Shown here: in pieces, positions 4,432-58,280 of the stretch
Layout: each line of letters starts with the position of its first letter
Position numbering within the stretch: position 1 is the stretch's first letter
From: Acinetobacter phage vB_ApiM_fHyAci03
Length of the DNA stretch: 64,000 nt
Sequence record: NC_049438.1
Strand: one strand, 5' to 3'
Notes under the pieces: generated by a model
The model's input: the letters and a program-made list of their open reading frames with translations, nothing else
Told to the model about the DNA's origin: nothing
The model's database searches: none
Translations under genes and position numbers: made by a program

Positions 4432-6675
<2,244 letters not shown>

Positions 6676-14620: not shown

Positions 14621-16030
14621 TTTGTATAATATGTTACCACAGTCCCATATTCTCCGTAAACCGTTTGCATAGCAATTTTCAGATTCAGATAGTTCTTCAT
14701 CAAATATTTCTAACTTGTCTTTAAGGACATGCTTCATGTAACCTGAACGATGTTTGAGTTCTCCATCAACAATATAAAAATATCCAGGCTTTGTTACTCC
14801 GACTTTCTCCATTCCCATTTGTTCATATACATTTCCGAAACTCCAGCGTCGATTTGCATATGAAATCAAATTCATTCCTTTAAGAAGTTTTGATGCACCG
14901 CCAACTACACAGGTATATTTTTTAGAACATAGTCTCAATAGTTCCATGTCATATCCTTTATTAAATCGTGGCTTGCCAAACGTTGCAACTTGAACAAGTT
15001 CGCCGTTATAGAACAGACCTTTAGCTGATGCCGCACCACATTTGCCTTGTAGATGGTTCTCTTCACAAAATTCATGCGCTATTGAAACAGAGATATCTCT
15101 AATGTCACATTTTCGAGCATAGATTGATTTTGATTTGCCCAATTTGTGTGAAATGACTGATTTCCAAATTTCACGTTTGATTGGATTTCGCCATTCATTT
15201 TCAAAAATGTGCAATAAGTGGATACCTTGCTTTTCACATTCTTCGGTTTTTGAAATGTGAGAATTTCTAATGTGTTTATCGTCAGCAGAATCTCCTGAAC
15301 TATGCCAGAAAATACCATTGTACTCTATTGCGAGCTTATGCGAAGGAATATACAGATCTAATTCTCTTGGAGGTATTATGTCTCTTCTATTAATATCCAC
15401 TGTAGCGCCTAGGCTTGTTATAAATTCATATAGTTCATCTTCTGCAATTGATCTACTTTTGGTACGAACACCATGATCAAGAGAAATCCTATACATGAAT
15501 GTATAATGGCACCCAATAATTTTAACCAAATCATCAAACCCATGTGTCTCATACATTTTAGTGAATTGGGCTTTATCATATACCCAATCTGGTATATGAT
15601 CTCTGCTTGGTTTTCTCGCCTTTATGGATTTGATGCCTTCTTTGGTGGTCCCGACATCACCATAACGTTCTCTGCGAGTATCCCAAACCTTTTGATGATA
15701 GTCATTTCGTCCTTTGAGAGCTGAAGAGATTTTCTTTGTCCTTGCCTCAACATCAGTGTTGCTTACTTTCTTTTGCTTGACTTCAGGATCGTTAGCCGAA
15801 CATTTTCTACTACAATACAATGATCCAATGGGTGCTGGATTAGAGCATACTTTACATTTAGGCAGTTCTGTTAGACCTAGCATTGCTAGTTTCATAACCG
15901 TGCTATCATCAAGACTGGCGTCGTACGCTGAACGATCAAACTTATCTGGATTATTCTGCACTAATTTCCGCCAGTTTGGGTTTAGTTTGCCCTTTGCATT
16001 CTTAAAAAAATCTATGTCTATCATCATCAT
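14600..16030 (-). CDS. Putative free-standing homing endonuclease-like protein, with a Zn-finger and a Vsr/PD-(D/E)XK-like core
   Basis: 476-aa ORF antisense to the late cluster, between 23 and 24. Cys4 cluster KCKVCSN…CSRKC. Vsr-like block ELDLYIPSHKLAIEYNGIFWHS. C-terminal YARKC…NHLQG block reminiscent of phage homing-endonuclease families. Confidence 0.4.
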   Translation of the reverse strand: MMMIDIDFFKNAKGKLNPNWRKLVQNNPDKFDRSAYDASLDDSTVMKLAMLGLTELPKCKVCSNPAPIGSLYCSRKCSANDPEVKQKKVSNTDVEARTKKISSALKGRNDYHQKVWDTRRERYGDVGTTKEGIKSIKARKPSRDHIPDWVYDKAQFTKMYETHGFDDLVKIIGCHYTFMYRISLDHGVRTKSRSIAEDELYEFITSLGATVDINRRDIIPPRELDLYIPSHKLAIEYNGIFWHSSGDSADDKHIRNSHISKTEECEKQGIHLLHIFENEWRNPIKREIWKSVISHKLGKSKSIYARKCDIRDISVSIAHEFCEENHLQGKCGAASAKGLFYNGELVQVATFGKPRFNKGYDMELLRLCSKKYTCVVGGASKLLKGMNLISYANRRWSFGNVYEQMGMEKVGVTKPGYFYIVDGELKHRSGYMKHVLKDKLEIFDEELSESENCYANGLRRIWDCGNILYKTKKGLK

Positions 16031-19315: not shown

Positions 19316-20830
19316 ATGAGTGACATCAACGTAATGTTTTACGATTATAGCCACATCAAGATCAGTACCCAGCAGTCGATATTCAGAGAACTAAGAGATT
19401 ACTTCTCATTTTATGTGGATGGATATCAGTTTTCGCCTAAATATGTTTATGGTACTTGGGATGGAAGATTAAAGATGCTTGGAACTGATGGCTTGCTACC
19501 ATTTGGCCTTTTAGGACAAGTAGTAAAATTTGCGCAGAATAATATGCTATCAATTGCTATCCATCCAGATGTTTCAGCTAAAACTGAAATGACACGTGAC
19601 GCCTTCAATGATTGGATTAGTTCTAAGACGTATTATTCTGGCTCAGAAGAAATCTTCCCATATTGGTATCAACTCAATGCAGTATATGAAGCCATTGTTA
19701 ACAAGCGCAGAATTTTGAATTTGCCTACATCAGCCGGTAAATCGTTAATTCAAGCCTTATTGTCAAAATATGTCATAGAAACATCAGATCGTTCAGTTTT
19801 AATTTTAGTGCCAACAACTTCTCTTGTAACTCAGATGAAAGATGATTTTGTTGATTATCGATTGTTTGAAGAAGATGAGATTGCAGAAGTTCGTTCAGGC
19901 AAGCGCCAAAAGCATGAACGAATTGTTATTTCTACATGGCAATCAGCTATCAAAAAGCCAAAGGAATGGTTCAATCAATTCAATATGTTATTGTGTGATG
20001 AAATGCATTTAGCCATTGGCAAATCTATTTCAGAAATCATTAACAAATTAAACTACTGTGAATTCAAAATAGGCTTGTCTGGATCACTACGTGATGGCAA
20101 AGCCAATTTAATGCAGTATATTGGATTGTTTGGTGAAATCTATAGCCCAGTTAGCACAAAGGACTTAATGAATGATGGACAAGTTTCACAACTTCGAATT
20201 AACGCGTTATTCTTGAAATACCCAGAAACAGTTTCAAATGCAATGGCTAAACATGACTATGCAACAGAAGTTAAGTTCATTACAAACTTAGCCAAACGAA
20301 CACAATGGATTTCAAATCTATCATTACGACTTGCAAATAGATCAGAAAATGTTTTTGTCATGTTTAAAAATATTGAGCACGGTAAAGCGATTTATGACAG
20401 CATAAAATCTAGTGGTCATGAACATGTGTATTATGTTTCAGGTGAAGTTAGTTCAGATGAACGAACACATTTGAAGAAAATGGCTGAAGAACACACAGGT
20501 GTAATCATCATTGCTTCATACGGAGTTTTCTCTACAGGTATTTCCGTTAGAAATCTACATCATGTCATTTTAGCTCACGGAGTAAAATCAAAGGTTATAG
20601 TCCTGCAGACAATCGGGCGTGTTTTGCGAAAACATTCTAGCAAAAAGGTTGCACAGATTTGGGATCTAATTGATGATATGTCTATTACTGTCGAACGAGA
20701 CGGAGCAAAACAACGTAAAAATGTTAATTATTTGTTGAAACACGGTATAGACCGTGTTGAACGGTATGCTGCAGAGCAATTTGACTATATTATGAAGGAC
20801 GTTTACTTTTTAGAGAATAACCGCTCATGA
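19316..20830 (+). CDS. uvsW: UvsW DNA/RNA helicase (SF2, DExH)
   Basis: 504 aa against T4 UvsW at 503 aa. Walker A LPTSAGKS and a DExH box (LLCDEMH). Confidence 0.85.
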   Translation: MSDINVMFYDYSHIKISTQQSIFRELRDYFSFYVDGYQFSPKYVYGTWDGRLKMLGTDGLLPFGLLGQVVKFAQNNMLSIAIHPDVSAKTEMTRDAFNDWISSKTYYSGSEEIFPYWYQLNAVYEAIVNKRRILNLPTSAGKSLIQALLSKYVIETSDRSVLILVPTTSLVTQMKDDFVDYRLFEEDEIAEVRSGKRQKHERIVISTWQSAIKKPKEWFNQFNMLLCDEMHLAIGKSISEIINKLNYCEFKIGLSGSLRDGKANLMQYIGLFGEIYSPVSTKDLMNDGQVSQLRINALFLKYPETVSNAMAKHDYATEVKFITNLAKRTQWISNLSLRLANRSENVFVMFKNIEHGKAIYDSIKSSGHEHVYYVSGEVSSDERTHLKKMAEEHTGVIIIASYGVFSTGISVRNLHHVILAHGVKSKVIVLQTIGRVLRKHSSKKVAQIWDLIDDMSITVERDGAKQRKNVNYLLKHGIDRVERYAAEQFDYIMKDVYFLENNRS

Positions 20831-21621
20831 ATTACAAAAGAATATACGATGAACTTATTAATAATGCGCTAAATCGTGCTAGTGTCAAATCTAAAGCTGC
20901 TCCTGGAGAATTAGAAACGCATCACATCGTGCCTAAATGCATTGGCGGCACTAATGATACTACGAATTTAGTTAATCTTACCACCAGAGAGCATATTATC
21001 GCGCATCTTTTGCTTGCTAAAATTCATGGCGGGAAATTAGTACGAGCCGCCATGGCAATGCATATGGGGCGCCCTTTATATAAATCGTCACGAGGCTTGG
21101 CAGCAATACGAAGTGAGTTTTCAAAACAACGAAAGGAACAAATGAAGGGAAATACATTTGGCTCTTATGTTTGGACACCTGAACGCAAAAATATACACAA
21201 ACAAGCGATGAGCTTGGTAGGGTATACTGATGCTAAACGTAAAGCTCTAGAGAAAGCGTGGGCTAAAAATACCGGGTCCAAGCAAACACCTGAAAGTAAT
21301 TTTAAGCGTTCAAATAGTATGAAATTATTAGGGTTTGTCCCGGTTAAAGCAGGAGACTTTAAGACTTGTTCTAATGCTGGCAAAGCCAATAAAGGTGTCA
21401 AGAAATCATTTAGGTCTGAGTCACATAGTGAAAATTGGAAACGGTCATTTAAACAAAGGTACCCTATTTGGGAGTATGAAGACCAGATACGAGAAATATG
21501 GTACGCCCATGATAAACCTAAAGTAGCAACTTTAAGAAAGATCGCTACGGCTAAAGGCATACCAGAAGGACACCTCGGTAAAATGTGTGCTAACTTTTTT
21601 AAACAAGATGGGACCAAATAG
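20827..21621 (+). CDS. HNH homing endonuclease (free-standing)
   Basis: HNH motif HHIVPKCIGGTNDTTNLVNLTTREHIIAH. ATGA-coupled to the uvsW stop. Basic C-terminal region. Occupies the uvsW.1/uvsY slot. Confidence 0.75.
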   Translation: MNYKRIYDELINNALNRASVKSKAAPGELETHHIVPKCIGGTNDTTNLVNLTTREHIIAHLLLAKIHGGKLVRAAMAMHMGRPLYKSSRGLAAIRSEFSKQRKEQMKGNTFGSYVWTPERKNIHKQAMSLVGYTDAKRKALEKAWAKNTGSKQTPESNFKRSNSMKLLGFVPVKAGDFKTCSNAGKANKGVKKSFRSESHSENWKRSFKQRYPIWEYEDQIREIWYAHDKPKVATLRKIATAKGIPEGHLGKMCANFFKQDGTK

Positions 21622-22559: not shown

Positions 22560-22727
22560 TTATTTTAGCTTTTTATCAGTGTACTTGCAACAAGGTACAA
22601 AATGAGAAATATAAACTCCTTGTTCATGACATGGACATCCACATTTTTTAATAATCTCATTCTGCTGTGCTGTTAGCACAGGTTTCCCAATTTTAAGAAT
22701 TTTGTTTAGTACTTTTACTAATTTCAT
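22560..22727 (-). CDS. Small Cys-rich hypothetical protein (55 aa)
   Basis: Translated by hand as MKLVKVLNKILKIGKPVLTAQQNEIIKKCGCPCHEQGVYISHFVPCCKYTDKKLK. ATGA overlap with the upstream small ORF. Below the ORF-track length cut-off. Confidence 0.3.
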   Translation of the reverse strand: MKLVKVLNKILKIGKPVLTAQQNEIIKKCGCPCHEQGVYISHFVPCCKYTDKKLK

Positions 22728-22891
22728 AACAATAACTCTGTTTCTAATAGCATGTCACCATTAGATTCTAGAACTGGCAAATCTTGAATGTGCTGCAAGC
22801 AGTGTCCAGGATGGACAGGTCCTTGATCAGTCTCAACTACCAATGCTTCATCAATCGGCATCTTACATACCGAACATATACGTGTTTCCAT
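22724..22891 (-). CDS. Small Cys/His-rich hypothetical protein (55 aa)
   Basis: Translated by hand as METRICSVCKMPIDEALVVETDQGPVHPGHCLQHIQDLPVLESNGDMLLETELLL, with CxxC…HxxHC. Below the ORF-track cut-off. Confidence 0.3.
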   Translation of the reverse strand: METRICSVCKMPIDEALVVETDQGPVHPGHCLQHIQDLPVLESNGDMLLETELLL

Positions 22892-22952
22892 TATTATTCT
22901 CCAAATGTGTATAGATGTATTTATAGATCTTTGAACAGCTGATATATCAGAT

Positions 22953-23042
22953 ACATCTAAACCATCAGTCCCCTATCTTCTCCGACCGAATAGATATAAT
23001 TAGAGCGGTGAACCGGTAGAACCATTATACCATCAAAATTTT
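22953..23042. repeat. Copy A of a ~90-bp dispersed intergenic element. The core ATATAATTAGAGCGGTGAACCGGTAGAACCATTATA-N-CATCAAAATTTT is shared with 54146..54235.
   Basis: A 36-nt block is identical in both copies, then one mismatch, then 12 identical nt. The upstream ~40 nt are about 75% identical and include ACATCTAAA and CCGACC. Confidence 0.8.
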
Positions 23043-23096
23043 ATAAAGCAAATGTGTGCTTATACATAAGGCGTTCAACAGATCAAATTTTGATCA

Positions 23097-23495
23097 TCAC
23101 TGATGTCTAGCGCCACTAAGTTGTAGCTTTAGTTGTTCAAGTGTATCCGGGTTATCTAAGATGCTAAACATAACAGTTACAATAATAGCATTATTATCAT
23201 ATTGTGCTTGCACTGTCACGCCTAGCCTAACAATTCTTGGCTCATATGCACGAATAGCTGATGTTATGCTTTTTTCTACTGTACTAACTGTAAGTGGAGA
23301 CATGTTTTCAAATAAAGCATCGCCAATTTCACAGCCGAATTCTGGGTCAAATGGACGAGAGCCTTTAGGTGTTGTAATAATTCCTAAAAGAGAATTTTTA
23401 ACTGCACGTGCGCCAACAGATGCAGCTACATCCTTATTCCATGCACGTGCCATTTCAGGTGATATGTCTGTATACATATCATTAATATTTTGCAT
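23097..23495 (-). CDS. 25: Baseplate wedge protein gp25
   Basis: 132 aa, identical in length to T4 gp25. Conserved position before 26. Confidence 0.8.
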   Translation of the reverse strand: MQNINDMYTDISPEMARAWNKDVAASVGARAVKNSLLGIITTPKGSRPFDPEFGCEIGDALFENMSPLTVSTVEKSITSAIRAYEPRIVRLGVTVQAQYDNNAIIVTVMFSILDNPDTLEQLKLQLSGARHQ

Positions 23496-36097: not shown

Positions 36098-36417
36098 TAT
36101 AATGATCCAATGTATGTTGCTGATTGTTCTGGGATATGAATTGATACCCAGAGTTTACGATATAATTCTACTGATTCAAAATGTACTTCATTTGCATTTT
36201 CTTTGTGTGCATACTGAAATAATTCAGGATCATTGCGTAAAATAAAACTTCCTTCTAATTCAGAGCCGTCTGAAATAATAACAGTTTCACCTGGTTGGCG
36301 TGTTTGATTCATTTCAACAAACACATAATCCTTTGGCCCTAATTTTCTAGGCGTCTCAAGAGTAGTGTTATAGCCTGCATCTTGGCTATCTTCTTTAATT
36401 TGTTGATATGTTTTCAT
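36097..36417 (-). CDS. Hypothetical protein (30.x region)
   Basis: 106-aa ORF. Confidence 0.4.
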   Translation of the reverse strand: MKTYQQIKEDSQDAGYNTTLETPRKLGPKDYVFVEMNQTRQPGETVIISDGSELEGSFILRNDPELFQYAHKENANEVHFESVELYRKLWVSIHIPEQSATYIGSL

Positions 36418-40703: not shown

Positions 40704-41226
40704 GTAATTCGATTAATTGAGCGGCTTCTTCAAGATCAAGATTGTTAAATAGTGCATGGCGTGGTGAAGTTGACTGGCGAGCTTCTCGTTCAGCGAGTTG
40801 AACAATTTCGTCAAACGTTAAATCTTTATGTGTTACCCCAAGGCGAATTTTAGGAGTTGCTCCACAAATAATATAGAACTTTGACCCGTTTAAATGAACA
40901 TTAGGCTGTGTTTCATTGATGAACACATGTGCATTCTTAAGGCGGTCTTCAAAGAAGCGTTTAGTTTCACGAATGTTATCATTCAGCATTAATGAGTCAT
41001 GGAATTTTTTACGTTCCTTTTTATCGGCTAGAGCTTGACGTTTCAGGACCTCTTTACGCAAGTCTGAAAAATAACCAACTCGTTTACCATTTTTCAGCAC
41101 ACTGCACCAGTCTTTGTCATCTCCAAACATTTCAACCAAAACTTCTGGCGTTAATGTGTGTACTGTATGTTTCATAATATTCTCCTCATATGCGATATTT
41201 GATATGACTATTATACCAATAGTCAT
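40690..41226 (-). CDS. Hypothetical protein at the position of T4 alc
   Basis: 178 aa against T4 Alc at 167 aa. Assignment is by synteny only (pseT … alc … rnlA). Confidence 0.3.
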   Translation of the reverse strand: MTIGIIVISNIAYEENIMKHTVHTLTPEVLVEMFGDDKDWCSVLKNGKRVGYFSDLRKEVLKRQALADKKERKKFHDSLMLNDNIRETKRFFEDRLKNAHVFINETQPNVHLNGSKFYIICGATPKIRLGVTHKDLTFDEIVQLAEREARQSTSPRHALFNNLDLEEAAQLIELLAGN

Positions 41227-47055: not shown

Positions 47056-48003
47056 TTAAACTGCCATAGGTGCTTTAATTGCTTCATGATGTTTATATCC
47101 AATAAGATTAAAGTCTTGAACTGTAGCAGTTTCAAAATCCTTTAATGTTTTAAGATTTGGGTTGATCGTAAGAATTGGCAATGGATATTCATCACGAGCT
47201 AATTGTTCTTTAACTTGCTCTATATGATTTTTGTAAATGTGAACATCGCCAAATTGCCCTGTCAAATATCGTGGAGTTTTTCCAAGAATTTGTCCAAGAA
47301 TACGCAATAGAGTTGCATATGATGCAATATTAAATGGGCAACCCAAGAAGATGTCGAGACTTCTCTGCGTCCAGATCATATCAATATAATCACCTGAAAT
47401 ATTGATTTGGAACCCAACATGACAAGGCGGCAAAATGGGTTTATCGATATCATATTCTTCAGTGTCAGATTTAACATCATGTTCCCAAATTAACTGTGGG
47501 TTCCATGCATAAACTAACAAACGACGAGAACCAGGATTTGTTTGGGCTTCTTTGATCATTTCAGCGAGCTGATCGACTTTAGGCAAGTTATGGCAATATG
47601 TGCCACCAAAATCTTGCTCAACATAAACACCATTTAGCCCATAACGACGCCATTGAGTTCCATAAATGAGGCCACAATATCCATCTTTATACCCAAGTTG
47701 CTTGCCTTGAACATTGTAGTTGTCGTCCCAAATAGTTTTCTTTTCGGTGTTGAATCGATTTTCTTCACCATGTGTCAATGCACGAAGATCATTGAGATTA
47801 TCTGAACCGCGAATAAACCAAAGTAATTCTGCGATCATGGCTTTAAATGCAAGCTTTTTAGTTGTAACCGCCGGAAATCCTTTACGCATGTCAAATTTAA
47901 TTTGTTCGCCAAACAAAGCTATAGTACCGACGCCTGTTCGTTCATTTGTAACTTCTTCGCCTTCATCAAGGACTTTTTGCAATAAATCGTGATATGCCTT
48001 CAT
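47056..48003 (-). CDS. td: Thymidylate synthase Td, intron-less
   Basis: 315 aa. Catalytic PPCH motif (ILPPCHVGFQ). Continuous ORF, so no group I intron. Confidence 0.85.
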   Translation of the reverse strand: MKAYHDLLQKVLDEGEEVTNERTGVGTIALFGEQIKFDMRKGFPAVTTKKLAFKAMIAELLWFIRGSDNLNDLRALTHGEENRFNTEKKTIWDDNYNVQGKQLGYKDGYCGLIYGTQWRRYGLNGVYVEQDFGGTYCHNLPKVDQLAEMIKEAQTNPGSRRLLVYAWNPQLIWEHDVKSDTEEYDIDKPILPPCHVGFQINISGDYIDMIWTQRSLDIFLGCPFNIASYATLLRILGQILGKTPRYLTGQFGDVHIYKNHIEQVKEQLARDEYPLPILTINPNLKTLKDFETATVQDFNLIGYKHHEAIKAPMAV

Positions 48004-53027: not shown

Positions 53028-54110
53028 TCAGAACCCGTTAAGGTCCTTTAGCAATTTTGTCAATTGATTTTTGACAAGATATGGATAGATTTTGCCGCGA
53101 GGAGCAGGTTTGTATTCTTTATAATGATTGATGATAGATTCACGAATATCGTCTCGAATATAATCAAAATCGATTAAAATACGATTACGTTTGAAACGAT
53201 GGAATTGCAAATCTGCGATTTGCTTTGCCATTGCCATGGCATCAGTTCTATATTGTTCAAGAATTTCACCATCTTCATCTTCAATTTGAACACCTTGGAG
53301 TTTGAGTAATTTGTGACATTCAGCCACACCTGTTTTTTTATTTTTAGCCTTTTTCATGATTTCTTCGGTTAAAGCTTCATAAACTTCATCATCTGATTTG
53401 CCGACTAATTTTGTAACAAATGCTGCCGTTGTAGATGGAGTGCGTTCGTCTTCTTCATAATTTAACCAGAAGTCGCCACGAACTTTGATAGATGCTACAC
53501 AGTCTTTGCGATCGCCTTTGAGAACTTTTGTTAAACAATCTTCTTGTGGCGAGCCAGTTTTGACTTTAACAAATTTTTTCTGAATAGGAGAATATTGATC
53601 TACGTCTTCAAGTTTATGTAACTGTGTAAAGTCGCCATCTGATGAAATGATACGAACTTTATATCCTTGTTTTGATAAATAAGATGACAAGACTGCAATA
53701 CAATCATCGGCCTCACAATGACGAACATCAACTACAACCCAAGGCATGTTGTCTTTAAGTTCTTGAATTACAATACCAAGTGCATTGAAATAACCATCCC
53801 AGTCAAATGATTCTGCTTCCTTAGCTGCGTCACGTGCTATCGCACGGTTTCGTTTGTAATAATCTTCTTCTTGACGACGCCAATAGCCATAACGTGCATT
53901 ATCAATAGCGATAATAACATGGTCATACCCGTCAGATTTAAATTTCAGTGCATTATGTTTAATTGTCGACAAAACTAACTGTCGAACAATTGGAACAGTG
54001 AACTTCATACCTGGTTCATATGTAACTGCCACAGTGGCTAAAGCGATTTGTGACAAATCGATAAGTAAAGCACCTGGCTTATCCTCACCGTAAAAATGGT
54101 CTAAACTCAT
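53028..54110 (-). CDS. rnh: RNase H / 5'-3' flap exonuclease (Rnh), with a ~50-aa insertion relative to T4
   Basis: Matches T4 as I recall it (…IDFSQIAL…YWRR…ADD.IAVL…ISSDGDFTQLHK…KILKGD.KD.VAS.KVR.DFW…ERTPS…LIDFDYI…PPRGKIY.Y.VK…). The start was set at the MSLDHF… ATG at 54110, which aligns with the T4 N-terminus. Confidence 0.85.
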   Translation of the reverse strand: MSLDHFYGEDKPGALLIDLSQIALATVAVTYEPGMKFTVPIVRQLVLSTIKHNALKFKSDGYDHVIIAIDNARYGYWRRQEEDYYKRNRAIARDAAKEAESFDWDGYFNALGIVIQELKDNMPWVVVDVRHCEADDCIAVLSSYLSKQGYKVRIISSDGDFTQLHKLEDVDQYSPIQKKFVKVKTGSPQEDCLTKVLKGDRKDCVASIKVRGDFWLNYEEDERTPSTTAAFVTKLVGKSDDEVYEALTEEIMKKAKNKKTGVAECHKLLKLQGVQIEDEDGEILEQYRTDAMAMAKQIADLQFHRFKRNRILIDFDYIRDDIRESIINHYKEYKPAPRGKIYPYLVKNQLTKLLKDLNGF

Positions 54111-54145
54111 ACTACTATCCTTCTGATAAATCAAATACATCTAAT

Positions 54146-54235
54146 ACATCTAAAACATTCAAATTCAGTCTATTCCGACCAAAGAAATATAATTAGAGCG
54201 GTGAACCGGTAGAACCATTATAACATCAAAATTTT
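54146..54235. repeat. Copy B of the ~90-bp dispersed intergenic element (partner at 22953..23042). It also carries a 9-bp tandem duplication ATACATCTA x2.
   Basis: 49-nt core with one mismatch relative to copy A. Lies in the divergent rnh / gene 34 intergenic region. Confidence 0.8.
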
Positions 54236-54254
54236 GAGTTGTAAATGTTGCTTT

Positions 54255-54262
54255 AATTCAAG
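54255..54262 (+). promoter_or_regulatory. Possible MotA-box (TTGCTTTA) middle-promoter element upstream of gene 34
   Basis: TTGCTTTA, then a 12-nt spacer, then the A/T-rich -10 candidate TAATAAAT. Weak. Confidence 0.2.
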
Positions 54263-54335
54263 TGTTTAATAAATATACATAGAATCCAGAGCTCAGCTTT
54301 TAATAAATATATGATAAGATAACAAAGGAAATCGC

Positions 54336-57300
54336 ATGTCTGAAGTAAAAACAAGTTTCCGTGCGTCATACGGTCTAGACGCGGCTGGTGAGAAAGTAAT
54401 TAATGTTGCAAAGGCTGACAAAACTGTCATGACCGATGGTGTCAACGTCGAATATCTCATTCAGGAAAATACGACCCAACAATATGACCCAGAGCGTGCC
54501 TATGAAAAAGGATTCATTATAGAATTTAATGATCGTCTCTGGATTGCAGAACAAGACATCCCTAAACCTGCAGGTAGCTTCAATGAAGGGTACTGGCGCC
54601 CAGTACGTACAGACCCAAAGTGGAAGCCTATCGATTCTGGTAAATATCAGTTACATGTTGGTGATTATATCACTGTAGATACGCGTGCAGGATTAGCTGT
54701 AGAACTAACATTACCTACTAATCCTATACCGCAGGAAGGCGATACAATTGTTGTAAAGGATGTCGGCGGGCAACCAGGTTACACATCGGTGTTAGTCTTT
54801 GCACCTGTGCAGTCAATTATTGACAAAGGCGTAAGTATTCCACAAAAACGAATGACTATTCCATTTTCTGAATGGACATTTGTATACACAAAGAGCCAAT
54901 GGTCATTATATGATGGCGTAGAAGCTCCAGTAGCAAGAACTGTTACTACATCTGGTCCTACTCAAATCCAATCAGGCGATACGATTCTTAGAAACTATGA
55001 TAAAGTAGCTCCTATTGTATTGACTTTTCCTAAATTTGCCAACAATGGCGACATAATTCATTTTGTAGGCATGAATGAAAATACAGTGCCTTATTATCAC
55101 TTAGAGCTTAATGCATTTGATAGCAATACAAGTATTGGTTCTCCGGGTAAGTCATCGCAAATTTTCTATCGTTCGCTAAGCGGGTATTTCATTTTTAATA
55201 GCTTGACTTCAACTTGGTATTTGTACGATTCAGATATGACAAATCGTCTTAGAACTGTTAGTACTGATACTGAGATTTTCCCGAATGAAACTGTAGCAGT
55301 AGTAGGCAAAGATAATACCACTACACAGACTATTAAATTGACATTGCCACAAAACGTGCAACCTGGCGACCAGGTAACAATTTCATTAAATTATATTAGA
55401 AAGGGACAAACTGTTAACATCGTGCCTAAAGGCACCGATATGATTTTAACAAATCAAAATCTAACTCAGTTCCCTAAACGCTCAAGTTATCCACCTGCTG
55501 CCAATTGGGTTAACACTAATTTATTGTCATATAACGGTTCAAATGACTACCCGCCAGTATTAACATTTGCATACATTGATATGGGGCCTATCAAACAATG
55601 GCTGATGGTAAGTTGTTTGCCTGTATTAGAGCGTGTTGATCCGTCAACAGATGATACTCGTACTCGTTTAGGTGTTATTGCTTTAGCAAATCAATCTCAA
55701 GCAAACTTAGACAAAGAAAATATTTCGGTTACTGCAAATCCATTAGCACGAGAAGTCGCTATCACGCCGGAAACTCTTGCCAATAGGACCGCTTTGGACA
55801 GCCGTCGTGGAATCGCAAGAATCGCAAAACAAGAAGAAGTAAACTTAACTACAGATGATGCTGCATTAGCATATGATACTATTGTTACGCCTAAGACTCT
55901 TAATGGCAAAAAGGCTACAGAAACGATGGTAGGTTTGGCAGAAATTGCTACTCAAGCCGAAACCAATAGCAACACTGACGATTCTCGTATCATCACTTCT
56001 AAGAAATTAGATGGACGACGCGCAACACCTGCTTTAGCCGGAGTCGCTAAACTTGTTGCTACAGGTGGCACTGCGCCTGTTAAAGGAGGTACAAATACGC
56101 GTGATACTGCTGGAACTGGCATTTATAATCATGCAGACTTTGAGAACATTGTTACACCTAAAACATTGAGAGAATATTATTCTACAGAAATGGCATTAGG
56201 TACAGTGTATCTTGCAAATTCTGCTGAAGTTATTTCTGGTGCAGCTACATTAGCTAAATATCCATTAGCAGTAACTCCTGAAACTTTGCACACTAAGACC
56301 GCTACCGATGAGCGTATAGGCTTTTCACAAGTGGCTAAACAAGCCGAAGTTGATGCTGGAACAGATTATTTTAAATTTGTTACACCGAAAACTTTAGCAG
56401 GAAGAATTGCACGAGAAGACTTAGCAGGTATCGCAAAATTAGCAACCCAAGGCGAATTTGACGCTGGTACAGCTGGATTAATTTCAGGTCCAGATAAAAT
56501 TAAGACATTTTTCTCTCGCGCTGAAAGAACTATTGTCAATAATGCTGAAGGTTTAACACAATCTGGTAGCATTTGGACCGGGTTAAAGTTGAATATTCTT
56601 GCACCATCCGAGACCCAACGTGGTACAGCAAGATATGCTACGCAAGATGAAACAGATAAAGGTGTTGATGCCACAACAATTGTGACTCCTGCAAAATTAC
56701 ATGCTAAGAAAGCCACTACAGATGCAGAAGGTATTGTCAGAATGGCAAATACTGCTGAGACGGTAGATGGTACTGCATATAATTTAGCAGTATCGCCTGG
56801 CAATCTAAAATATGTTGTACAATCAGAATTGACATGGGAGGCCACACCTGAACGTAGAGGTTTCATTAAACTTTCTACGGGTTCGACAACATGGCAAGGC
56901 AACACAGTTGATGGTAATGCAAATATCGACATTGAAACTCAATTTAACAAAAATGGTATGGCTGTTTCGCCGTATGAGTTCAACCGTGTTTTAAGGAACT
57001 ATTTACCTATTGGCGCAAAAGCAGTTGATTCTGATAAATTAGATGGATTGGATTCATCACAGTTTATTCGTAGAGACATTGCCCAAGTTGTTAATGGCGC
57101 ATTAACACTGACACAGCCTACAACTGCAACATACATTACTGCTTCTAATGATGTATCAGTCCAAGCTCTTTTATCTGCTAATCAGATTAACGTACGAAAA
57201 TCTGGAACTCCTGATGATACGTCTGTTACAAAGAACGCTGGTATAAATTTGTATGGCGCTCCACAATCTGCTACAGGACGTCCGACCTATGGTATTCATT

Positions 57301-58280
57301 TTTCTAGTACCGGTGGCACAGACCCTAATGGGATACATGGCTATGGCGGCGGGACTTGGGGTACGTATTTTGCTCAAAGCATCTCTAGCGCAGCTGAACA
57401 ACGTGCATGGTACTTCCAGCAGATTTTTAACGGTGCAGTTAAAAACGTTGGCTCTATCACAGCGCAAGGCGATGTTTGGTTTGATGGTGTTATTAACAGT
57501 GATAAAACATTCAGACTTAAAAATAGCGTCATAGCTGAAAAGGATTCAGGCGATAATCTAATTTTCGGTACGACTGATCAGCAAATGTACCTTCGTTCTA
57601 AAGCAGCAGATATAAAGGTTCAAGAAGTAGTTGGTGGAACTTCTTATCAAGTTATTACATCTAAAAACTTTGTTGATGAAGGTAACAAAACTTATGTGAG
57701 AAAGACTGGCGATTCAATGACTGGGCGCCTCAATATTTCTCAACCTATAACTGCTACTATCAACCAATCTGCTGCGACACCAAATGCAGTTCCAAATGCC
57801 AGCAATTTTGGTACATGGACTATTGATATAACTGATCCTGCAATATATAATACTATGCGCCCATATGTTGTTGGAGTAAATGCAATCAATAAAGAGACAA
57901 GTGAAGTCTTGCCTTGGTTTGATAAGTACGAGGAGTTTAATGGGCCTGGTACATTGTCACAATTTGGATCTTCTGCTAGTAATGGTTCTGGTACATACCA
58001 AATCTGGGCGCCACGTCCGCCAGCAGATAAAGCGAATTTACCTGGGCATATTGCTGGCACAATGTGGACAAGACAGTGGAATCCTATTACAAATAAATGG
58101 GATGGCTGGGGCAGAGTATTCACAAATAACCATCCACCATTGCCTACAGACATTGGCGCTATGAGCAATAATGGTTCAGTTTTTGATTCTATGAGAATTA
58201 GAGATTGGATTCAAGTAGGTAATTTGAGAATTTATGCAGACCCATCTACAAAAACCGTTCGTTTTGATTGGATTGAATAA
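54336..58280 (+). CDS. 34: Long tail fibre proximal subunit gp34
   Basis: 1314 aa against T4 gp34 at 1289 aa. The N-terminus MSEVKTSFRASYGLDAAGEKVINVA…VNVEYLIQENT is T4-like. Confidence 0.9.
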   Translation: MSEVKTSFRASYGLDAAGEKVINVAKADKTVMTDGVNVEYLIQENTTQQYDPERAYEKGFIIEFNDRLWIAEQDIPKPAGSFNEGYWRPVRTDPKWKPIDSGKYQLHVGDYITVDTRAGLAVELTLPTNPIPQEGDTIVVKDVGGQPGYTSVLVFAPVQSIIDKGVSIPQKRMTIPFSEWTFVYTKSQWSLYDGVEAPVARTVTTSGPTQIQSGDTILRNYDKVAPIVLTFPKFANNGDIIHFVGMNENTVPYYHLELNAFDSNTSIGSPGKSSQIFYRSLSGYFIFNSLTSTWYLYDSDMTNRLRTVSTDTEIFPNETVAVVGKDNTTTQTIKLTLPQNVQPGDQVTISLNYIRKGQTVNIVPKGTDMILTNQNLTQFPKRSSYPPAANWVNTNLLSYNGSNDYPPVLTFAYIDMGPIKQWLMVSCLPVLERVDPSTDDTRTRLGVIALANQSQANLDKENISVTANPLAREVAITPETLANRTALDSRRGIARIAKQEEVNLTTDDAALAYDTIVTPKTLNGKKATETMVGLAEIATQAETNSNTDDSRIITSKKLDGRRATPALAGVAKLVATGGTAPVKGGTNTRDTAGTGIYNHADFENIVTPKTLREYYSTEMALGTVYLANSAEVISGAATLAKYPLAVTPETLHTKTATDERIGFSQVAKQAEVDAGTDYFKFVTPKTLAGRIAREDLAGIAKLATQGEFDAGTAGLISGPDKIKTFFSRAERTIVNNAEGLTQSGSIWTGLKLNILAPSETQRGTARYATQDETDKGVDATTIVTPAKLHAKKATTDAEGIVRMANTAETVDGTAYNLAVSPGNLKYVVQSELTWEATPERRGFIKLSTGSTTWQGNTVDGNANIDIETQFNKNGMAVSPYEFNRVLRNYLPIGAKAVDSDKLDGLDSSQFIRRDIAQVVNGALTLTQPTTATYITASNDVSVQALLSANQINVRKSGTPDDTSVTKNAGINLYGAPQSATGRPTYGIHFSSTGGTDPNGIHGYGGGTWGTYFAQSISSAAEQRAWYFQQIFNGAVKNVGSITAQGDVWFDGVINSDKTFRLKNSVIAEKDSGDNLIFGTTDQQMYLRSKAADIKVQEVVGGTSYQVITSKNFVDEGNKTYVRKTGDSMTGRLNISQPITATINQSAATPNAVPNASNFGTWTIDITDPAIYNTMRPYVVGVNAINKETSEVLPWFDKYEEFNGPGTLSQFGSSASNGSGTYQIWAPRPPADKANLPGHIAGTMWTRQWNPITNKWDGWGRVFTNNHPPLPTDIGAMSNNGSVFDSMRIRDWIQVGNLRIYADPSTKTVRFDWIE

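Follow-up and report, generated by a model that had tools for sequence, protein, structure and literature searches.

Origins of replication that are primed by transcription are familiar from plasmid ColE1, with its RNA II, and from the primary origin of phage T7. In this work we have investigated a repeated non-coding element of the Acinetobacter phage vB_ApiM_fHyAci03 (NC_049438.1), first noticed at positions 22953-23042 of a stretch of 64,000 nucleotides which was analysed at its full length and is called the window below, and we have followed this element through the genomes of related phages. The closest described systems belong to T4-like phages. Phage T4 uses about five origins early in infection, among them oriF, or ori(uvsY), and oriG, or ori(34), the R-loop origins described by the Kreuzer laboratory and reviewed by Kreuzer and Brister (PMC3016281). 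Both need about 100 bp, consisting of a middle promoter and a downstream unwinding element; the minimal origin is the promoter plus about 50 bp downstream, and the transcript forms an R-loop which primes the leading strand (PMC3016281). The T4 origins have no common motif, their unwinding element is A+T-rich and not sequence-specific, and oriE, oriF and oriG are near strand-switch points, which oriA and oriC are not (PMC3016281). According to the T4 record, the primer RNAs of oriA and oriF are gene transcripts and those of oriE and oriG are antisense to late genes 5 and 34. The second system comprises the PeSL and PmSL elements, composite terminator-promoter motifs (Arbiol 2010; Comeau 2014, PMC4122927); PeSLs are numerous, occur in hyperplastic regions next to indels, share the orientation of the genes and close with a Shine-Dalgarno sequence and a start codon (PMC4122927).

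Our best reading is that the Acinetobacter element represents five paralogous transcription-primed origins derived from the oriF region and not ordinary gene promoters, and we would give this reading a probability of about 0.45. Copy number, synteny, orientation, even spacing, conservation of the promoter, lack of structure in the predicted RNA, descent from the uvsY region and concerted evolution are established by the comparisons reported here.

Five loci per genome and their spacing

An earlier note on this DNA had described two copies 31 kb apart which share a 36-nt core, followed by one mismatch and a further shared motif, and this proved correct at both places. The 36-mer ATATAATTAGAGCGGTGAACCGGTAGAACCATTATA has two exact matches in the window, both on the plus strand (22994-23029 and 54187-54222), and their number stays at two when up to three mismatches are permitted; there was no match in 100 dinucleotide shuffles, the chance expectation being none. 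The base after the 36-mer is C at 23030 and A at 54223, CATCAAAATTTT follows in both copies, and the distance from copy 1 to copy 2 is 31,193 bp. The preceding 41 nt are about 70-75% identical with two gaps, in line with the 75% over about 40 nt estimated before, and the 9-bp tandem duplication reported for copy 2 is also present, in the form of three units. The element is longer than the 90 bp or so first given to it, the homologous stretch being about 145 bp (roughly 22951-23095). A profile hidden Markov model built from ten copies found only two matches in the window (95 and 85 bits; the runner-up had 8 bits), which place the two repeat units as follows:

22951..23095, minus strand: copy 1, in the gap between gp25 and uvsY.-2; profile match 23072..22972, 95.5 bits
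54126..54264, minus strand: copy 2, in the divergent gap between rnh and gene 34; profile match 54264..54166, 84.8 bits

The window is 97-99% identical to Lazarusvirus phages, which are T4-like phages of Acinetobacter, for example KARL-1 and Berthold. A count of two is right for the window itself, but the genome-wide search for further copies, which the earlier note had proposed, gave five loci per genome in complete relatives. In the complete genome of Berthold these are:

15.9 kb, inverted: between srd and a Tk.4-like gene
47.7 kb, orientation as in the window: within the split DNA polymerase region (gp43)
79.7 kb, inverted: between genes 3 and 2
118.6 kb, orientation as in the window: between gp25 and uvsY.-2
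150.1 kb, orientation as in the window: between rnh and gene 34

Copy 2 of the window is syntenic with the last of these and with the AbTZA1 copy at 65.9k. The profile found exactly five copies in each complete genome searched, everything else scoring at most 11 bits, and AbTZA1, a Hadassahvirus phage, and Maestro have the element at the same five gene junctions and in the same orientation relative to the genes as Berthold. The comparison with related genomes, likewise proposed before, thus found the element across Lazarusvirus and Hadassahvirus instead of absent from relatives. On the circular map the gaps between neighbouring copies are:

Berthold: 31.8, 31.9, 38.9, 31.6 and 31.7 kb
AbTZA1: 36.2, 29.7, 31.9, 38.3 and 32.2 kb
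Maestro: 34.1, 32.1, 40.6, 32.0 and 30.4 kb

The probability that five random points leave a smallest gap at least as large as that observed is 7e-6 for Berthold and 1.9e-4 for AbTZA1, and for Berthold it remains between 5e-6 and 2e-5 when the sites are drawn from TGnTATAAT, TATAAT or positions outside open reading frames. This even spacing is the strongest single clue to the nature of the element, as ordinary promoters have no reason to split a chromosome into fifths.

The orientation of the copies is also informative. Three of the five are sense copies whose promoter points towards uvsY.-2, rnh and the small open reading frames upstream of gp43B, the second half of the polymerase, and the other two run antisense, against gene 2 at the gene 2/3 locus and against Tk.4 at the srd locus, where the promoter reaches the G+C-rich palindromes or terminators of convergent gene transcripts within 100-150 nt. 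The mixture of three sense and two antisense copies is kept in both genera, which argues that the functional unit is the promoter-leader itself and not the expression of a downstream gene. Three copies are within 2 kb of points of transcription divergence and skew minima and two are inside a long early region; as evidence for origins the GC skew is only weakly informative, since it follows the transcription strand.

The core was found in 50 database records, all of them from Acinetobacter phages assigned to Lazarusvirus or Hadassahvirus (one is named Tegunavirus), with five BLAST places in 45 records and six in the remaining 5. From the records with six places we resolved KARL-1 and Maestro, leaving out AC4 and AB-Navy-v2. 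A genuine sixth copy could be ruled out for both: in KARL-1 one locus is repeated at the two ends of the record by assembly overlap, and in Maestro there is a tandem duplication inside one locus. The records of KARL-1 and AbTZA1 open inside a copy of the element, and that of KARL-1 repeats about 115 bp at both ends. An artefact of assembly at a repeated sequence most likely lies behind this, with the effect that copy counts come out too high and one copy of AbTZA1 is divided. The Maestro duplication (80,166-80,324, gene 2/3 locus) is head to tail, extends exactly from the TG of the extended -10 to +44 (-15..+44) and is adjoined by an inserted MobC-like homing endonuclease gene. Matches in IMG/VR were limited to AbTZA1 and Kimel, plus four chance matches in G+C-rich coding DNA, and there was no match in the JGI metagenomes.

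Downstream of some copies there are two G+C-rich hairpins, GCTGCTGCGCAGC and GGCGCnnnGCGCC, which we read as terminators of convergent gene transcripts. The pair was located at:

Berthold, 15,960-16,000 and 47,650-47,700
AbTZA1, 36,136-36,169
Maestro, 80,376-80,405

Because fragments of it are seen at other copies, this module was probably part of the ancestral repeat unit.

Anatomy of a copy and its descent from the gp25-uvsY region

In the alignment of the ten Berthold and AbTZA1 copies, the conserved reading is on the minus strand, where TG(T/G)TATAAT is followed by the invariant sequence GGTTCTAC(C)GGTTCACCGCTCTAA. The parts of a copy are as follows:

23024..23032, minus strand: extended -10 TGGTATAAT of copy 1; TGnTATAAT is present in 10 of the 10 aligned copies
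54217..54225, minus strand: extended -10 TGTTATAAT of copy 2
23000..23023, minus strand: invariant block GGTTCTACCGGTTCACCGCTCTAA of copy 1, with two direct GGTTC repeats
54193..54216, minus strand: invariant block GGTTCTACCGGTTCACCGCTCTAA of copy 2
22972..22999, minus strand: remainder of the conserved leader, TTATATCTATTCGGTCGGAGAAGATAG
23042..23064, minus strand: imperfect hairpin TATAAGCA-cacatt-TGCTTTATA of copy 1
23050..23044, minus strand: MotA-box-like TGCTTTA, the 3' arm of this hairpin, 14 nt upstream of the -10
54240..54245, minus strand: -35 hexamer TTTACA, found in the rnh copy only, where it replaces TGCTTTA, 17 nt upstream of the -10
23081..23095, no strand assigned: AT-rich palindrome GATCAAAATTTGATC just after the gp25 stop codon
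22951..22965, minus strand: uvsY-start remnant ATGGTTTAGATGTAT, aligned with Ac42 ATGAATTTAGATCAAT, the first codons of UvsY (MNLDQL)
54126..54157, no strand assigned: three 9-bp tandem units, ATACATCTA on the plus and TAGATGTAT on the minus strand, the expanded uvsY-start remnant

The single core mismatch between the window copies falls on the free n of the TGn extension. The 24-nt invariant block is identical in the ten copies except for a 1-nt deletion in 3 AbTZA1 copies, and its two GGTTC cores are 8-9 nt apart; the CGGTGAACCG sub-motif, formerly taken to be palindromic, is better read as part of these direct repeats. A TATAAT-like motif had been proposed as well. The one on the plus strand (ATATAAT, at the left end) is not kept in the sister genus, all five AbTZA1 copies having ATAAATTT there, and a plus-strand promoter is ruled out; it is the minus-strand TATAAT that is conserved. 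From the distance to the -10, transcription of copy 1 is predicted to start near A 23017. Downstream of the block there is an A+T stretch, then CGGTCGGAGAAGATAG and then the TTAGATGT motif.

The extended -10 lies on the transcribed side and is kept in relatives, as expected of a sigma-70 promoter predicted from sequence. A scan of the minus strand at copy 2 found TTTACA-N17-TATAAT with the TG extension, matching at 11 of 12 positions, and this -35 is conserved in AbTZA1; the other four copies have no -35. The view of the element as non-coding, conserved and promoter-like is thereby upheld. The hairpin arms GTAAAGCA and TGCTTTAC occur also in the srd, gp43 and gene 2/3 copies, so that four of the five copies have them. 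Between the genera, identity is highest in the 50-nt bin that begins at the -10 (87%, against 58-83% in neighbouring bins, which include coding sequence). Conservation covers the -10 and about 45 nucleotides of the predicted transcript, identity being about 75% around this part. The folding energy of the leader does not stand out from that of shuffled sequences (z from -0.4 to +0.75), its consensus contains only a 3-bp hairpin, and Rfam had no matching family (best E > 2, far under the gathering scores). A structured RNA or riboswitch is therefore rejected, and with it the structured form of the small-RNA locus suggested before.

Two further descriptions of the element could be set aside. It is no unnoticed coding region: the copies differ by indels, share no conserved open reading frame, and the small ones annotated in some records are unshared. 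Nor does it resemble a miniature transposable element, as it has neither terminal inverted repeats nor target-site duplications and occupies the same sites in all genomes examined.

The origin of the family can be traced at copy 1, whose surroundings, and those of copy 2, are:

23097..23495, minus strand: gp25 baseplate wedge gene, upstream neighbour of copy 1 (open reading frame list; annotation from relatives)
22724..22891, minus strand: uvsY.-2-like open reading frame (DUF2685), first gene downstream of the copy 1 promoter (open reading frame list and annotation)
53028..54110, minus strand: rnh (RNase H), downstream of the copy 2 promoter (open reading frame list and annotation)
54336..58280, plus strand: gene 34, the other neighbour of copy 2

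In T4, the junction of genes 25 and uvsY contains the uvsY middle promoter and the origin oriF (115,321 in the T4 record, with the uvsY transcript as primer RNA), and copy 1 is at the same junction and has the same direction. The promoters read TGCTTCA-N13-tggTATAAT in T4 and TGCTTTA-N14-tggTATAAT in the window. Acinetobacter phage Ac42, which has retained uvsY, has a single homologous copy directly upstream of this gene and none between rnh and gene 34. Its 25-uvsY gap aligns with copy 1 with a score of 76, against 25 +/- 3.9 for shuffles (z = 13), and the homology spans the whole gap, from the palindrome after gene 25 through the box, TATAAT, GGTTCACCaGGTTC and GGGAAGATAG to the first uvsY codons; the Ac42 counterpart of the invariant block is TATAATtGGTTCACCaGGTTC. 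The palindrome has its counterpart at the same place in Ac42 (GATCAAAAAATGATC) and ZZ1 (GATCAATTTCCGATC), with similar sequence in most other copies. The uvsY promoter of phage 133 is of the plain T4 type and lacks GGTTC repeats. Since the Ac42 alignment runs through the uvsY start codon, the TTAGATGT motif, which all copies contain and which is expanded in copy 2, can be identified as a remnant of the uvsY start. All five copies hold this remnant and none is followed by uvsY, so the function that has been retained is not the expression of UvsY. Judged by this homology, promoter and leader have outlived uvsY and been multiplied, and the family descends from the gp25-uvsY intergenic region.

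A tblastn search of the whole genomes of Berthold and AbTZA1 found neither UvsX nor UvsY, and a DprA-like recombination-mediator gene is annotated instead. In the window uvsY is missing between genes 25 and uvsY.-2 (22892-22965), and only a decayed start-codon region is left. It is unusual in this phage group for the T4 recombinase pair to be lost; Petrov et al. have uvsX and uvsY in their core/quasicore table (PMC2993671), and the ZZ1 paper noted that the two genes are not common to all five Acinetobacter T4-like phages.

The copies also evolve together. At one set of positions every AbTZA1 copy has AAATTT and every Berthold copy TAATTA, and the srd locus of KARL-1 bears a leader variant which is found at the polymerase locus of Berthold. 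Gene conversion between copies would be the simplest cause of these concerted changes. The earlier suggestion of a recombination hotspot fits this behaviour, but as a consequence of the repeats and not as a demonstrated function.

Proposed transcription-primed origins and the alternatives

Could a single origin of the oriF type have become five? In the mechanism that we propose, host RNA polymerase would start at the promoter of the element, the G+C-rich and unstructured 5' end of the transcript would remain hybridised to the template as an R-loop, and the helicase-primase would enter at the displaced strand, on which the GGTTC repeats lie. In this lineage uvsY was lost and promoter and leader were kept, and they are now present at five loci which divide the circular map into nearly equal fifths. 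Transcription, R-loop formation, priming and origin activity are what we infer from the homology with T4 in position and architecture and from the spacing. The unstructured leader is compatible with the formation of a hybrid, and the peak of constraint, from the -10 to about +45, is close to the T4 minimal origin in size. As regards a possible middle promoter dependent on MotA, four copies place TGCTTTA 14 nt upstream of TGnTATAAT, the corresponding spacing in T4 oriF being 13 nt, the rnh copy has a -35 instead, and the genome contains the genes for MotA and AsiA.

Copy 1 resembles T4 oriF in its place and direction, in a Mot-box-like element 13-14 nt from TATAAT and in about 50 bp downstream, which add up to about 100 bp. 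The family as a whole resembles the T4 origins in number (about five), in unit size, in the mixture of sense and antisense copies and in having three members at points of transcription divergence. On the other hand, the five copies are near-identical paralogues, whereas the T4 origins share little or no sequence; and unlike in oriF and oriG, the downstream part is G+C-rich and conserved in sequence, the spacing is nearly even and uvsY is absent. Origin activity has been demonstrated for T4 and is a proposal for the Acinetobacter element. As in ColE1 and T7, a promoter transcript would supply the primer without a dedicated initiator protein (for ColE1 see also PMC3016281). RNA II, however, is long and highly structured and the leader here is short and unstructured, and ColE1 and T7 have one origin per replicon instead of five. 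Short direct repeats at a putative origin also recall the iteron cluster of T4 oriE, although that is an evenly spaced cluster of 12-nt repeats (PMC3016281) and the present element has two 5-nt GGTTC cores.

Several observations weigh against transcription-primed origins. Positional orthology with a mapped T4 origin is limited to copy 1; for the remaining four loci the distance to the T4 equivalents of oriG, oriE and oriA is 2-5 kb or more. Unlike the A+T-rich unwinding element of T4, the conserved block has a stability above the genome mean (nearest-neighbour value around +12 of -1.36, against -1.27 kcal/mol per step), and no 50-bp A+T-rich zone of low stability was found downstream of the promoter; stability around +37 is only average (-1.21), with an A+T stretch of 14-16 nt. 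Other middle-type promoters of this phage have GCTTTA-N12, and the N14 spacing in the element makes its dependence on MotA uncertain. Gene conversion can keep copies alike, so that identity among the copies of one genome does not by itself speak for selection; the preservation of all five positions across 50 genomes does. In a limited search of the literature on these phages, we found neither a description of the element nor data on R-loop formation or on replication of a plasmid with the element.

It may seem attractive that an oriF-type origin was copied to five sequence-identical, evenly spaced positions and that this amplification might compensate for weak recombination-dependent replication in phages which have lost UvsX and UvsY. 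This part of the story is weakened by ZZ1, where uvsY is also missing at the locus (L068 4798-5020) and yet a single, diverged copy is present. Amplification is then not a necessary consequence of the loss of uvsY, and the loss cannot have been its sufficient cause; we consider this fuller reading as a whole unlikely.

The same facts can be read in another way. The element might be a multicopy RNA module, that is, a short non-coding or leader RNA whose unstructured 5' 45 nt act as an antisense or trans-acting seed, a protein platform or a stability element, five copies raising the dose. It speaks for such a module that the conserved part is predicted to be transcribed and single-stranded, that at the antisense loci the transcript would meet G+C-rich hairpins or terminators after about 100-150 nt and end as a discrete short RNA, and that the Maestro duplication comprises exactly the -15..+44 block. 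The lack of an Rfam family, of a conserved fold and of covariation speaks against it, as does the search for targets: complementarity of the leader to the rest of the phage genome was at chance level, and neither strand of any Acinetobacter representative genome contains the invariant 16-mer, which leaves no perfect target in the host. A mimic or target of host sequence was ruled out on a broader scale too, a 23-mer being absent from 185,579 species genomes and the 16-mer having 35 matches, 0 of them in Acinetobacter. An RNA module gives no reason for the even spacing, and we regard it as unlikely.

A little less likely still is an ordinary promoter/terminator cassette of the PeSL/PmSL type described by Comeau, Arbiol and Krisch, spread by illegitimate recombination and homogenised by gene conversion, which would only start transcription and insulate units, its spacing being a coincidence. 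The element does share with PeSLs and PmSLs a stem-loop directly upstream of an early- or middle-type promoter, repetition in the genome and a likely role as a substrate of homologous exchange. In four copies out of five, the stem-loop GTAAAGCA-loop-TGCTTTAC and the Mot-like box overlap, and a stem-loop just ahead of a Mot-box-like promoter is also described for the PmSLs of phage nt-1. Three copies stand in front of genes, and the concerted evolution, with the KARL-1 locus that bears the leader variant of another locus, is what such a cassette would lead one to expect. However, where PeSLs are abundant, cluster in hyperplastic regions, are gene-oriented and close with a Shine-Dalgarno sequence and start codon, here there are five members at fixed core positions in 50 genomes, with a conserved non-coding leader of 45 nt whose only start is the dead one of uvsY. 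A chance probability of about 1e-5 does not favour coincidental spacing, and the two antisense copies would be useless to a cassette and are nevertheless conserved across genera. The least likely of the three is a DNA site at which the GGTTC repeats straddling the predicted start would bind a phage or host protein, be it an operator-type regulator of the promoter, an initiator or a factor by which the chromosome is organised or marked at regular intervals. In its favour, the two direct repeats are about one helical turn apart in an invariant block and are kept in Ac42 despite changed surroundings, all copies of AbTZA1 differ alike from those of Berthold just downstream, as would be expected if they co-evolved with a single partner, and even spacing suits a chromosome-scale role. 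Against it, three of the five copies in AbTZA1 have the distance between the repeats altered by 1 nt, the G+C-rich block found at this place in ZZ1 is unrelated, the analysis yielded no candidate protein, and gene conversion accounts for the concerted changes just as well. Searched by eye only, IHF and DnaA boxes amounted to a near match to IHF in the spacer, unconserved in AbTZA1.

If the copies are indeed transcription-primed origins, they would constitute the first T4-type system of multiple origins with one defined sequence common to all, and the conserved G+C-rich GGTTC block would define what an R-loop origin of this type needs. Five near-identical, evenly spaced copies of the oriF region make the question of what confers origin function in T4 testable with one short sequence at five loci, and ZZ1 and Ac42, with one copy each, are a natural comparison. 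Lazarusvirus and Hadassahvirus phages are used in therapy against Acinetobacter baumannii, so that knowing where their replication starts is of practical value for engineering. Should the idea of origins be wrong, the even spacing of a repeat that keeps its positions through 50 genomes would still call for an explanation.

Other promoters and minor features of the window

The earlier note had also considered an extended early-promoter-like element. The element is promoter-like, but it differs from the ordinary early promoters of this phage, which have the form TTTACA-N17-TGnTATAAT-(a/g)gtcctATCAAAt, with ATCAAAT after the -10. These promoters often have a dyad, an inverted repeat on both sides of the -10, for example gatatgactattggTATAATagtcatatc; one in the window is at 41215 (minus-strand -10), and others are at 5629, 25679, 32924, 48475 and 136603 in Berthold. 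The arms vary in sequence from promoter to promoter and retain their complementarity. A dyad of at least 6 nt occurs in 14 of the 44 Berthold early promoters, compared with 2.6 expected from shuffles (maximum 8).

A late promoter for gene 34 or gene 3 within the element was rejected, since the AATAAATA motifs are outside it and TATAATTA is not conserved. Two AATAAATA motifs lie on the plus strand upstream of gene 34 (54266-54273 and 54303-54310). The motif resembles the T4 late promoter TATAAATA with A in the first position, and it may reflect the consensus of late promoters in this group of phages.

Between uvsW and the small open reading frames downstream of uvsY.-2, the plus strand of the window has an open reading frame of 264 aa with an HNH endonuclease motif (20827-21621). 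Compared with Berthold, in which window positions 20800 and 21610 adjoin, about 810 bp are inserted here, and the reading frame probably encodes a free-standing homing endonuclease.

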